Made by a program: the position numbers and the translations under genes. The notes beneath the pieces were generated by a model. The model was not told the DNA's origin, searched no databases, and saw nothing but the letters and a program-made list of their open reading frames with translations. A DNA stretch of 64,000 nucleotides, from assembly GCA_965649295.1 (NCBI GenBank), contig CBFGKH010000008.1:1-64000 (forward strand), written 5' to 3'. The stretch comes from a candidate division WOR-3 bacterium (GTDB taxonomy: Bacteria; Hydrothermota; Tepidihabitantia; Tepidihabitantales; Tepidihabitantaceae). Shown here in pieces: positions 59,969 to 63,110 of this stretch (positions within the stretch are counted from its first letter, which is position 1; every line of letters starts with the position of its first letter).

Positions 59969-60475
59969 TCAGAAGGGCGCGAAATGGGCCTCGTGCCAGT
60001 AGGATTCGAGCAACTGGCTTTGCTGGCGGCGGATGGCGGCGGCGTGGTTCTCTTCCCACCGAACAAGAGCACTAAAGAACCGTTGCGCTTCCGGCTCCTC
60101 GACCTGCCCCAGCAGGTTACGGTATTGGGTGATGCTGGCGAGCTCAAGTTGGAGCCCAACGGCCAGCGCCGTCATCTCCCAGTGAGCCTCAGCAATGCGC
60201 GCTCGCAGCTCAGCGGAGAAGATTGGGTTTTCACCGCCAAGCTCTGCGCCAGCAGCGTTCAGCAGCCAGTTCGGCTGACGACCGGCAATCAGCTCACCGT
60301 ATTGCTGTTTGAGATATTCAAGGTGCTGAACTTCCTCGCTGGCAAGCTGCTGAAAGACATCCCGTCCTTTAGGATCAATCGTCTTGGCTGCGGCCGCTGT
60401 ATAGAATTCGTTGCCGGCCTGCTCGGCCAGGATTGCCTGCTTCAGCCCGGCAATCAGCAGCTCAGGATTGCCCAC
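59969..60475 (-). CDS. Ferritin-like (rubrerythrin-type) protein
   Basis: AI..E..G..FY, LA.EE..H, E..SI..Y, L...E..H. Confidence 0.85.
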   Translation of the reverse strand: MGNPELLIAGLKQAILAEQAGNEFYTAAAAKTIDPKGRDVFQQLASEEVQHLEYLKQQYGELIAGRQPNWLLNAAGAELGGENPIFSAELRARIAEAHWEMTALAVGLQLELASITQYRNLLGQVEEPEAQRFFSALVRWEENHAAAIRRQQSQLLESYWHEAHFAPF

Positions 60476-60857
60476 TTTCTGGTTGCACCTCGCGCTTGAG
60501 CAGTTCGTCGATCTTGCCGAGCAGCTCCTCAGGCTTAACCGGCTTGTGAACAAATGCATCGGCGCCCGCCTGATAGGCTGCGACCTCGTCCTTCTCGCTG
60601 GCCCGGGCCGAGCATACCACAATCGGCAGATGCTTTTTCTGGGTGCGCCGCAGCATCGTGCAGGTCTCATAGCCATCCATGCCCGGCATCAGAAGGTCCA
60701 TCACCACCAGGTCTGGTCGGTCGTTCTGAACCATCTTCAGGGCAATCCTGCCGTCGGGCGCAATGGAGACCCGATAACCTGCGCTCGTAAGCAGTTTCTC
60801 CATGTAGATCTGAATCGGCCGTTCGTCCTCCACTACCAGGATGTGCTTCTGCTCCAT
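60462..60857 (-). CDS. Single-domain response regulator
   Basis: ILVVEDE, PDLVVMDLLMPGMDG, GAD....KP. Confidence 0.93.
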   Translation of the reverse strand: MEQKHILVVEDERPIQIYMEKLLTSAGYRVSIAPDGRIALKMVQNDRPDLVVMDLLMPGMDGYETCTMLRRTQKKHLPIVVCSARASEKDEVAAYQAGADAFVHKPVKPEELLGKIDELLKREVQPESGQS

Positions 60858-60998
60858 GGGTTCAGGATAAGGCCCGCCAGCAGCAAGTCAAGCCCACGCA
60901 GCGTGGATTGGTGCTGAGCAACCCCGTGCTGGCAGCCAGCCGATTGACGCCCGGCCTACTGCCGGCTACGCTATCTTGCCACCAACAAAGGAGAACCC

Positions 60999-61937
60999 GT
61001 GCGATTCATCTTATTGCTGAGTACGCTCACCGCGCTGGTGCCGGCAGCAGAGATTCTGGTCTGGAACTACGACACCCTTGACCGTTTTTATGACCCCATC
61101 CGCAACGATTCGGTTGACTGTGCCTACTGGGTTGCCGAGCAGCTTCGGGCTGACGGCCACGCTGTTACCGTCCAGCCCGGTGCAGCGCTACCGCCATCCC
61201 TTACTGGGTTCGATGCTGTCTTCTGTCTGATGGGCTGGTACCGGTGCTGAGGCGACAACTGCACCATCGCTCAGGCTGAGCGAACCAAGCTGATTGACTA
61301 TCTAGAGGCCGGTGGCCCGGTCTATGCGGAAGGTGGCGACATCGGCTATTCTAATGCCACCACCAATATCTGGCCCTACTTCGGTGCCAGCTACCTAGCT
61401 GACGGCAATGCGGTCGGTAATGTCAGCTCCCTGACTGGCCGGCCCGGCACTTTCGCTGCCAGACTCCGCTTCGGTTATCCCTACAGCCAAGGTCCAGACA
61501 GCTATGTTGACGAGCTTGGTGCAGCCGCCGGCCAACTACTGCTGGCCGACCAGAGCTCGATCGGTCGCGCGGTGGTGCACCAGACCCCAACCTATCGTTC
61601 AGTCGTCGCCGCCACCATTGCCGGTGCCCTGTTGCCGACTGACCGTGGCGAGTTCATCAGTGCCTGTGCCCGCTACCTGGTAGAGGGACTCGGCATTGCC
61701 GACTATCAGCCCGCCAGCCGGCAGCAGCGCGCCGTACTGCCAACCAGCTCCGTTGCGGCTGGCAGCGAGCTGCGTCTTTGGGCGCCAGCAGACGCCGGCC
61801 AGCTCTACGATGTGACCGGTCGAGTCATCGGCACAATTCGGGCCGGCGCCACAACCATCGCCACTCAGGGGCTACCCAACGGTGCCTACTTGGCCTTGTT
61901 CGGCGGCACGACTCTTCGCTTCGTAGTAGCAAAGTAA
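60999..61937 (+). CDS. Secreted protein with in-frame TGA at 61248-61250 (probable selenocysteine) and T9SS-like tail, 312 aa
   Basis: ORFs 60999-61250 and 61572-61937 share a frame with no other stop between them; WYRC-U-GDNC; signal peptide and LYDVTGR...LPNGAY...RFVVAK tail. Confidence 0.75.
61267..61283 (+). promoter_or_regulatory. SECIS-like hairpin
   Basis: TCGCTCA-GGC-TGAGCGA starting 16 nt after the TGA, with a G-led loop. Confidence 0.55.
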
Positions 61938-61988
61938 CAAATGCCGCCAGCCCGGCATCGGTCGGGCTGGCGGCGCCTGCGCTCAAAA

Positions 61989-63110
61989 CTACAACGGTTT
62001 TTCCATCACCCGGTAGCGCTTATAGACCTCGGCGCCAAGCTCACGGTCAAAGTCATTAATCAGTCGGTTGTCCTCAAGATTCCAAGAAAGCTCGCACCAC
62101 TGGTAACCCTTCTTGCGGCCATAAAGCTCGGTCTCATAGAAGAGCAGTACCGGCAGCCCGAGCCGGCGATACTCCTGCTTGAACCCAAAGACGAGTGCCC
62201 GCACTCCGGTAATCCGATTCTTGTAATAGAGGAACTTCAGTATCTCCAGTGGCCCAAACCGACCCCCGAGCCGCGCGAGAATCTGGTTCATATCCGGCAA
62301 GGTGATAGAGAGACCGGCTGGCTTGCCGTCGTAGAACGCCAGCAGCACCATTCCCGGGTCAGCAAAACTCTTCAGGTTCTTAGCCAGCAGGTCCATCTCC
62401 TTATCGGTCATCGGTGAGAAACCCCAGTTCTGCTCCCACGAGGCGTTATACAGCTCCTTGATTATCCGCATCTCATTCGCCAGGTCCTTCATATTCACCG
62501 GCCGCACTGTAATCCGCGGGTTCTCCCGCAGTTTCAGGGCCAGCGTGACCAGCCGTTCTGGCATCGGTTTCGAACTGTATTTGATGAACGCCAGCAGGTC
62601 CTTGGCTTTAGCCAGCCCCCAGTTCTCGGCCAGTTTGAGGTAGTAAGGCGGGTTGTAAGGCATCATCAAGACCGGTGGCCGGTCAAAACCCTCAAGCAGA
62701 AAACCCCACTCATCATTCGACGACGGCGACATCGGCCCGCGCAGCACCGTCATGCCCTGAGACTTGACCCAGTCGGCTGCGGCATCAAAGAGAGCGTTCG
62801 CCACCTCTTGGTCGTCAACCGTCTCAAAGAACCCAAACGACCCGAGCTTCTCGTTCCAGAGGTTGTTGTAGTTGTCGTCAACCTGGGCGCTAATCCGGCC
62901 CACCACCTGATTGTTACGTCGGGCCAAGAAAAGCTCGCGCCGGGCGTGCTCCCAGAACGGATGATGCTGGTCAAGAATTGCCCGCACTTCCTTTTTCAAG
63001 GGTGGCACCCAGTTGGGGTCGCCGCGATAGAGCCGGAACGGCAGGTCAATGAACTGCCGGAGGTCGGCTTCGGTCTGGACGGGGGTGATGGTAACCACAG
63101 CTAGCTGCAC
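61989..63110 (-). CDS. GNAT-fold N-acetyltransferase (YghO-like)
   Basis: DPNWVPPL, GRISA, FGFFE, MPYNPPYY, NWGFSP, ELSWNLEDN. Confidence 0.85.
   Translation of the reverse strand: MQLAVVTITPVQTEADLRQFIDLPFRLYRGDPNWVPPLKKEVRAILDQHHPFWEHARRELFLARRNNQVVGRISAQVDDNYNNLWNEKLGSFGFFETVDDQEVANALFDAAADWVKSQGMTVLRGPMSPSSNDEWGFLLEGFDRPPVLMMPYNPPYYLKLAENWGLAKAKDLLAFIKYSSKPMPERLVTLALKLRENPRITVRPVNMKDLANEMRIIKELYNASWEQNWGFSPMTDKEMDLLAKNLKSFADPGMVLLAFYDGKPAGLSITLPDMNQILARLGGRFGPLEILKFLYYKNRITGVRALVFGFKQEYRRLGLPVLLFYETELYGRKKGYQWCELSWNLEDNRLINDFDRELGAEVYKRYRVMEKPL

Follow-up and report, generated by a model that had tools for sequence, protein, structure and literature searches.

Results

A read-through gene for a probable exported selenoprotein

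The DNA analyzed here is a 64,000-nucleotide stretch (positions 1 to 64,000 of contig CBFGKH010000008.1, assembly GCA_965649295.1, from a candidate division WOR-3 bacterium; hereafter the window), which is contig 8 of a 2.28-Mb genome in 19 contigs. Positions 60999–61937 very probably form a single gene for an exported selenoprotein, in which an internal "stop" would encode selenocysteine (Sec, U); from comparative sequence analysis we place the probability of this reading at roughly 0.92. Under translation table 11 a GTG-started frame (60999–61250) closes at the TGA at 61248–61250, and the frame stays open to the TAA at 61935–61937. This TGA is the only in-frame one, and the read-through product has 312 residues, with Sec as residue 84 in the context G-W-Y-R-C-U-G-D-N-C and a beta-rich C-terminus. 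The initial annotation of this stretch, made from its letters alone, had described the signal-peptide open reading frame (ORF) stopping at the TGA with an open continuation to 61937, the W-Y-R-C-U-G-D-N-C context and a perfect 7-bp hairpin with a GGC loop 16 nt past the TGA, all of which are present. It had named homologues with TGA or Cys at this site, a conserved hairpin and selA, selB, selC and selD in the genome as the evidence to look for.

The TGA is conserved in every close homologue read

A six-frame search of 61 related genomes returned 28 matches. Seventeen were strong (E 4e-209 to 5e-50); they lie in 16 of the 61 genomes, spread over several genera and five family labels, and are 40–52% identical outside the window's own genome. 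Each of them contains exactly one TGA. The homologues align full length across it, and the TGA occupies a single column in 17 of the 17 aligned sequences (alignment A1). U84, G85 and D86 are invariant. The vicinal Cys83 is kept in 16 of the 17 (Thr in L034), and the distal Cys88 in 14 (Gln in L037, Ser in L038 and L049), with N or S in many metagenome copies. The Cys-Sec-Gly-x-x-Cys motif proposed initially thus stands for its vicinal Cys and its invariant Sec-Gly, but not for its last position, and the distal Cys of C-U-G-x-x-C appears to be dispensable.

Larger collections gave the same picture. In the species-genome collection TGA was found at the site in 11 of 11 loci (6 new, 5 duplicates of earlier loci). 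The metagenome scan yielded 50 loci, a count that includes some contigs identical to genome loci; 49 cover the site and the 50th ends before it. TGA was present in 50 of 50 instances, L092 contributing two, and TGC, TGT or TGG was found at the Sec codon in none of them. On the L092 contig the selenoprotein gene is duplicated in tandem, and both copies have the TGA (G-W-Y-R-T-U-G-D-N-S and G-W-F-R-C-U-G-D-N-A).

Searched with a profile, 272 genomes of the phylum gave at least 46 matches with TGA in at least 39 genomes. Among the matches listed, those with TGA all fall in the window's own class (family labels f1, f2, f3, f6, f13 and f14), and the stop-free ones are C-terminal pieces or weaker paralogues (E 2e-43 or worse); none of these listed stop-free matches is better than E 1e-43 except one C-terminal piece, which has its N-terminal piece, with TGA, on another contig. 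This search returned 86 further, weaker matches beyond those listed. In every close homologue whose DNA was read, the site therefore holds TGA and no sense codon.

A hairpin in two registers follows the UGA

The window's hairpin reads UCGCUCA-GGC-UGAGCGA (61267–61283). Of 22 homologous genes, 21 have a hairpin with 6 or more base pairs, G-U included, that begins 13–16 nt after the UGA, at an expectation of ∼0.12 hairpins per gene from the density elsewhere in the same 22 genes; the L034 stem has one mismatch. The 81 nt around the window's hairpin have an unremarkable folding energy (z = -0.12). The argument therefore rests on the local hairpin and its conservation; a lone hairpin would prove nothing.

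The homologues use two hairpin registers, 4 nt apart, and the loop starts with G in both (GUN, or GGC/GUC). Register 1, found in most genes, is CCGUCG-GUN-CGACGG, coding T-V-G-[S/P/T]-T-E. Register 2, found in the window and in divergent members, sits further from the UGA and is U[C/U]GCUC[A/C]-G[G/U]C-[U/G]GAGC[G/A]A, coding [I/V/L]-A-[Q/P]-[A/S/G]-E-[R/Q]. Compensatory changes occur in each. In register 1, C-G is replaced by A-U in L025, L064 and L083 and by U-A in L088, all at synonymous sites. In register 2, pair 2 is either C-G or U-A and pair 7 either A-U or C-G, each switch coupling a synonymous third position to an R/Q or Q/P amino-acid change. The hairpin that was to be looked for among homologues has thus been kept through compensatory change.

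Synonymous constraint was measured as synonymous-codon identity between pairs with the same residue. It was 0.73 at codons +6 to +11 after Sec and 0.64 at codons 0 to +5; the other forty-two 6-codon windows of the gene, which serve as a within-gene control, ranged from 0.24 to 0.64.

Bacterial selenocysteine insertion sequence (SECIS) elements, in the consensus described for bSECISearch, are stem-loops 3′ of the UGA with an early G in the apical loop, the loop lying 16–37 nt after the UGA. Here the first loop nucleotide is a G, 19 or 23 nt past the UGA, so that both position and loop fit this consensus. At E <= 10 Rfam offered no matching model, only two chance matches (mir-326 and mascRNA).

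The genome encodes the selenocysteine machinery

The genome contains selA (575.6 bits), selB (345.3 bits), tRNA-Sec (72.9 bits) and two selD genes, each selD with a single in-frame TGA, and all of them score above curated cut-offs; every selenium gene named in the initial annotation was thus recovered. The selD genes lie at G000:C1:318451-319377 (-) and G000:C1:355394-356299 (-) (L008 and L009), with Sec contexts A-A-G-U-A-A-K and C-A-G-U-A-S-K, and the second adjoins selB at C1:356367-358244. Across the related genomes selA occurs in 57 of 61, including all 16 that carry the selenoprotein gene. This co-occurrence discriminates little, because the selenium trait is near-universal in the lineage.

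Database proteins are mostly truncated at the Sec site

When 1.84 billion representative proteins were searched with the profile, 129 matched at E <= 1e-30. Among the best 150 representatives, 75 are C-terminal pieces whose first residues lie 1–48 profile positions past the Sec column and one is an N-terminal piece ending G-W-Y-R-C, that is, at Cys83; a further 18 have later starts, 52 span the site and the remaining 4 fit none of these kinds; no full-length orthologue is among the 150. Five matches at E <= 1e-10 came out of a word-based search of 5.8 billion proteins, four of them C-terminal pieces.

Gene callers thus read the TGA as a stop, and in the window itself no convincing start opens the downstream frame close to it. 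This would be expected if the TGA were a true stop and the region held a gene for an 83-residue secreted peptide, with the frame behind it either defunct or translated on its own (a pseudogene or a split gene). We regard this as very improbable. A nonsense mutation would not keep one column across dozens of loci at 33–53% identity with both halves conserved, and the sorting tail encoded in the downstream half needs the upstream signal peptide. There is no conserved Shine-Dalgarno sequence or start after the TGA. The hairpin and the synonymous constraint, moreover, are located exactly there.

A residue could be placed at the Sec column by hmmalign in 31 of 151 sequences: Cys in 8 (including the query), Ser in 6, Leu in 3, Pro, Val, Gly, Asp and Asn in 2 each, and Thr, Glu, Phe and Met in 1 each. 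Five of the seven non-query Cys sequences have it within a CxxC motif. P0009, P0014, P0021, P0054 and P0065 form a W-C-x-[GS]-C-G..P-P-G subgroup in which the second Cys aligns with Sec, and P0022 also has Cys at the column. The Cys counterpart anticipated in the initial annotation therefore exists, in a paralogous CxxC subgroup. The five subgroup members share with the window protein the amidotransferase-like domain described below (profile E 3e-62 to 2e-37), the signal peptide, the tail for the type IX secretion system (T9SS) and the Cys aligned with Sec. Unlike it, they have CxxC in place of C-U and lack the TGA; they are not orthologues, and many are considerably longer, with immunoglobulin (Ig)-like, CARDB or NIDO domains.

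The same domain, devoid of Sec, is fused behind a subtilase (Peptidase_S8) in P0046 and a gingipain-type Peptidase_C25 in P0095. These fusions suggest that secreted proteases of these bacteria commonly carry it as an accessory module.

Predicted fold and export route

The read-through protein matches no Pfam family, and at E <= 1 no NCBIfam model besides a weak T9SS tail; no NCBIfam selenoprotein model matches. This supports the initial proposal of a secreted selenoprotein outside the Fdh, SelD, Prx and Grd families. The AlphaFold2 model, built on the 17-sequence alignment (predicted local distance difference test, pLDDT, 76; predicted template-modeling score, pTM, 0.66), places an alpha/beta domain at about residues 18–230, followed by a seven-strand sandwich. 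Foldseek matches at E 1e-08 to 1e-05 were GH42 middle domains, TrpG, PabA and STM3548. Individual structures matched by Foldseek include the GH42 beta-galactosidase trimerisation domain 5e9a (E 1e-08), STM3548 2gk3, TrpG 1i7q_B (TM 0.69, target-normalised) and the IFT52 N-terminal domain 5fms. The first domain is accordingly modeled as a class I glutamine-amidotransferase-like fold.

A catalytic class I glutamine amidotransferase was considered and rejected. The strand-end motif in the alignment at which the nucleophile elbow should lie reads Y-A-E-G-G-D and holds no Cys, and with A-E-G-G-D at the nucleophile position the protein is therefore not a catalytic amidotransferase. No Pfam or NCBIfam glutamine-amidotransferase model matched, and a Cys-His-Glu triad would lack its elbow Cys.

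The invariant residues are W22, Y24, D25, D28, G79, R82, U84, G85, D86, Y109, E111, G112 and D114, located at or just past the ends of strands 18–23, 73–77 and 108–111. In doubly wound alpha/beta folds such strand ends form the functional crevice. From the topology of the predicted fold, the acidic and aromatic ones at the other strand ends (W22, Y24, D25, D28, Y109, E111 and D114) should converge on the Cys-Sec site.

By inspection, the N-termini of all 17 homologues are basic, then hydrophobic, and end in A-A or A-x. At the other end, 12 of the 17 match the T9SS tail model TIGR04183 at E <= 0.01 (best 8.9e-09). A PDB sequence profile matched in the C-terminal sandwich only, to FlgD Ig-like and gingipain C-terminal domains. 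In the genome the T9SS sorting tail is matched 92 times, many of these matches falling in open frames of 1000–2700 residues. Two full-length PorU-like genes score 369.5 and 340.4 bits, below the 420-bit cut-off; PorU was the only T9SS component searched for. For a genome of 2.28 Mb, 92 such tails amount to a secreted or surface proteome of unusual size.

Evidence that weighs against a selenoprotein

Several observations count against the reading of 60999–61937 as an exported selenoprotein gene. Covariation counted on a single codon-register alignment is weak. Pairing in the 6-bp register is 87.5%, compared with 85.3% after shuffling, and 112 of 500 shuffles pair at least as well; in the 7-bp register the figures are 71.4% and 64.5%, with covariation of 0.190 and 0.109, and 0 of 500 shuffles reach the unshuffled figures. 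The sequences are related, and these shuffle counts are therefore not probabilities. Counts from a single alignment are weak because there are two registers, each structure fitting only its own class. The loop is only 3 nt, and both L092 copies and L104, all from metagenomes, can form only about 4 bp at the place of the hairpin.

Other points concern the protein. The window's own tail falls below the TIGR04183 cut-off of 23 bits (12.9 bits, E 0.084), so that the T9SS-like tail of the initial annotation is supported by the 12 matching homologues and not by the window's own score. The Cys-Sec loop follows strand 73–77, and residues 81–85 have pLDDT below 50; the placing of the loop in the fold, and the function proposed for it, are therefore inferred. 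No search found an orthologue with Cys at the Sec site, Cys being confined to a subgroup of paralogues; in others the column is occupied by S, V, G, D, N, P or further residues. No RNA sequencing run containing the stretch 60999–61937 was listed.

The last point is P0153 (JGI, 311 aa), a full-length protein, 50% identical, which has W at the Sec position according to the protein record. This would be expected if the TGA were decoded as Trp or Gly, through a reassigned code or near-cognate read-through. Metagenome gene callers can choose a table-4 model on short contigs, which turns TGA into W, and the W of P0153 may be a TGA translated in this way on its 1013-base contig. TGA also serves as an ordinary stop in the window: the 60 ORFs of at least 200 aa end in TGA (24), TAG (30) or TAA (6), a crude tally that takes in some non-genes. 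Each homologue has a single TGA, always in one column; the genome holds the full Sec machinery; and the site is flanked by Cys and aligned with a Cys of CxxC. Decoding as a standard residue is thus hardly tenable, and Sec remains the strongly preferred reading.

A proposed mechanism and two views of the Cys-Sec site

By analogy with the established bacterial pathway, a ribosome arriving at the UGA (61248–61250) would meet SelB with Sec-tRNA(Sec) bound to the hairpin (61267–61283), and Sec would be inserted as residue 84. Failing insertion, only an 83-residue fragment missing the sorting tail would be made. As judged from domain homology, the 312-residue precursor would cross the inner membrane through its signal peptide (Sec pathway), and the C-terminal sorting domain would pass it to the T9SS and on to the cell surface or outside. 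The working part would be the vicinal Cys83-Sec84 pair, usually together with Cys88, exposed at the surface.

This pair would most likely act as a selenol/thiol redox centre, with a selenenylsulfide exchanging with extracellular disulfide- or polysulfide-type substrates. We give a redox centre about an even chance; a binding role is clearly less probable, and something else less probable again. The redox centre is favored because of the CxxC paralogues and the likeness to mammalian thioredoxin reductase, in which a C-terminal Gly-Cys-Sec-Gly forms a selenenylsulfide that shuttles electrons to the substrate. The two proteins share a vicinal Cys-Sec followed by Gly. Fold and compartment differ: in thioredoxin reductase the motif sits on a flexible C-terminal end and receives its electrons from the flavoenzyme itself, whereas the window protein has it in an internal loop, is predicted to be secreted, and lacks a flavin domain and a known electron donor.

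A selenoprotein could also use its Cys-Sec as a high-affinity ligand for soft metals or metalloids (Hg, Cu(I), As, Se), as a surface scavenger or sensor. There is no obvious extracellular electron donor, no conserved neighbor gene that could be a redox partner (22 loci), and invariant acidic residues lie close in the sequence, all of which would suit a ligand. The paralogues with W-C-x-x-C before a helix speak for the other side, that arrangement being typical of dithiol oxidoreductases such as thioredoxin, and no metal-resistance or transport genes lie alongside in the 22 loci. Haft and Gwadz (bioRxiv 10.1101/2022.07.06.499078) take the CU/CC motifs of SaoB, SaoL, SaoC and HgcA, among them extracellularly exposed proteins, to suggest heavy-metal binding. 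These CU-motif selenoproteins (SaoB, SaoL and SaoC of the SAO system, and HgcA), together with MbdU and KCU-star from a 2026 review (PMC13188914), resemble the window protein in the Cys-Sec dipeptide, in gene truncation at that point in databases and, for some members, in exposure outside the cytoplasm. They have other folds, and the window gene differs in being T9SS-exported and in having no SAO-like neighborhood. The NCBIfam models for these families, and that for CopZ form 2, are unmatched by the window protein at E <= 1. On balance we consider the metal-ligand role the less likely one, and redox chemistry remains the preferred function.

The absence of a Cys orthologue from every search suggests that sulfur cannot replace selenium in this protein and that selenium would be indispensable, which makes the window protein a promising place to look for a new selenium-dependent reaction. 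A more specific and tentative idea, which we hold to be somewhat doubtful, is that Cys-Sec on the amidotransferase-like scaffold forms the catalytic centre of an undescribed extracellular selenoenzyme, for example a reductase or transferase at the surface that acts on polysulfide, elemental sulfur or metalloids.

A second Cys-Sec family among distant relatives

Ten weaker, seemingly stop-free homologues (L039-L047 and L050, in 9 genomes of family f5; for example L041:1123-3075 (-)) are apparently selenoproteins themselves. Immediately upstream of each open frame of about 445 residues is a conserved in-frame TGA, which belongs to the motif D-T-T-[N/D/S]-G-C-U-x-x-x-C-x-A-R-V-L-A-D-[D/N]. The TGA falls in a separate N-terminal domain some 150 residues ahead of the amidotransferase-like one. 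At 17 nt past the UGA there is a hairpin, GGCGAG-GGUC-CUCGCC, with a compensatory change from G-C to A-U in L047 and L050. Reading through would give a protein of about 637 residues that has a signal peptide, a T9SS tail and, besides that tail, no Pfam or NCBIfam match. The many open frames of 441–456 aa that the phylum search found in families f13 and f14 look like more members.

This family shares with the window protein the phylum, the amidotransferase-like domain, the T9SS tail, Cys-Sec with a Cys four residues later, and a hairpin after the UGA. It differs in that Sec lies outside the amidotransferase-like domain, whose own loop reads C-C-G-x-Y-P-N-N, and in the hairpin, with its GGUC loop and 17-nt spacing.

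Gene anatomy and neighborhood

The coordinates of the features are collected in Table 1. Most of the 17 homologues have GGAG or GGAGG at an equal distance before their starts. In related contigs the start is ATG (60999 G>A in runs X1-X3). Two contigs, of 21,276 and 12,069 bases (∼88.5% and ∼90.6% identical), cover the gene. Among 40 of 163 differences listed, none falls in 61218–61303, and the TGA is likely to be present in both contigs as well. P0152, encoded on a contig of 21,276 bases, is a C-terminal piece only, consistent with a stop at the TGA site. Four DNA sequencing runs contain small shares of the stretch 60999–61937.

Table 1. Predicted features of the selenoprotein gene region, in window coordinates.
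Feature	Coordinates	Strand	Details and basis
Shine-Dalgarno sequence GGAG	60990..60993	+	5 nt before the GTG start; read from sequence
Complete selenoprotein gene (probable)	60999..61937	+	312 codons plus TAA, GTG start, Sec as codon 84; read-through translation
Putative signal peptide, residues 1-17 (MRFILLLSTLTALVPAA)	60999..61049	+	Sequence inspection
Class I glutamine-amidotransferase-like (flavodoxin-like) alpha/beta domain, about residues 18-230	61050..61688	+	AlphaFold2 model and Foldseek; no Pfam model
Putative redox/ligand motif C83-U84-G85-D86-N87-C88	61245..61262	+	Loop after strand 73-77; alignment and model
Probable UGA selenocysteine codon, residue 84	61248..61250	+	Same column in every close homologue read
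SECIS-like hairpin	61267..61283	+	7-bp stem, GGC loop (61274-61276); compensatory changes, synonymous conservation
C-terminal beta-sandwich, putative T9SS type A sorting domain, about residues 245-312	61731..61934	+	Seven strands in model; 12/17 homologues match TIGR04183
12-bp GC-rich hairpin between the selenoprotein gene and the convergent gene 61989-63110 (-)	61943..61974	.	Terminator-like score, minus strand

On the plus strand the GC-rich hairpin that follows the gene has no T-run after it. The promoter scan, which covers the sigma-70 type only, found no sigma-70-like promoter on the plus strand. Across 22 loci there is no conserved operon partner: wide sharing was limited to the gene's own two halves and to overlapping-frame artefacts, with one downstream gene common to 3 loci and one upstream gene to 4. 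Upstream of the selenoprotein gene, on the opposite strand, a 131-residue ORF (60462-60857 (-)) resembles by eye a response-regulator receiver domain; part of this ORF is also covered, in another frame, by one of 235 residues (59969-60676 (-)).

Discussion

The selenoprotein family described here is uncatalogued and has an unusual scaffold and destination. Table 1 of a 2026 review (PMC13188914) lists 119 prokaryotic selenoprotein families, and no T9SS-sorted or amidotransferase-like C-U-G-D protein is among the entries of that table; the review gives most catalogued bacterial selenoproteins a thioredoxin-like fold and a redox motif. The sole amidotransferase entry in the table is NF004836, a CTP-synthase-related GxUxG family. 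Like the window protein, it is a selenoprotein on a class I glutamine-amidotransferase-type fold. It differs in being listed under the CTP synthase (PyrG) domain, with Sec replacing the catalytic Cys, to go by the GxUxG motif. In the window protein Sec lies one strand earlier, in the loop after 73–77, the elbow reads A-E-G-G-D, there is a signal peptide with a T9SS tail, and the NF004836 model is unmatched. Term searches of the deep-Sep (PMC12013277) and BSepDB (PMC13326102) papers, their supplementary tables and BSepDB itself aside, turned up no mention of secretion or T9SS. A full-text literature search found nothing relevant joining selenoproteins or selenocysteine with type IX secretion or Por_Secre_tail.

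These data suggest that Sec is placed on a non-thioredoxin scaffold and sent outside the cell via the T9SS, where there is no obvious electron donor. The family is not rare in its lineage (at least 39 of 272 phylum genomes, and 49 metagenome loci). The best 150 database representatives are mostly truncated and include no full-length orthologue, and the family therefore escapes gene counts, secretome predictions and surveys of selenoproteomes. If the Cys-Sec site is indeed the centre of an extracellular selenoenzyme, then, together with the second Cys-Sec family in sister lineages, it would mean that an uncultured class routinely runs selenium-dependent surface chemistry via the T9SS.

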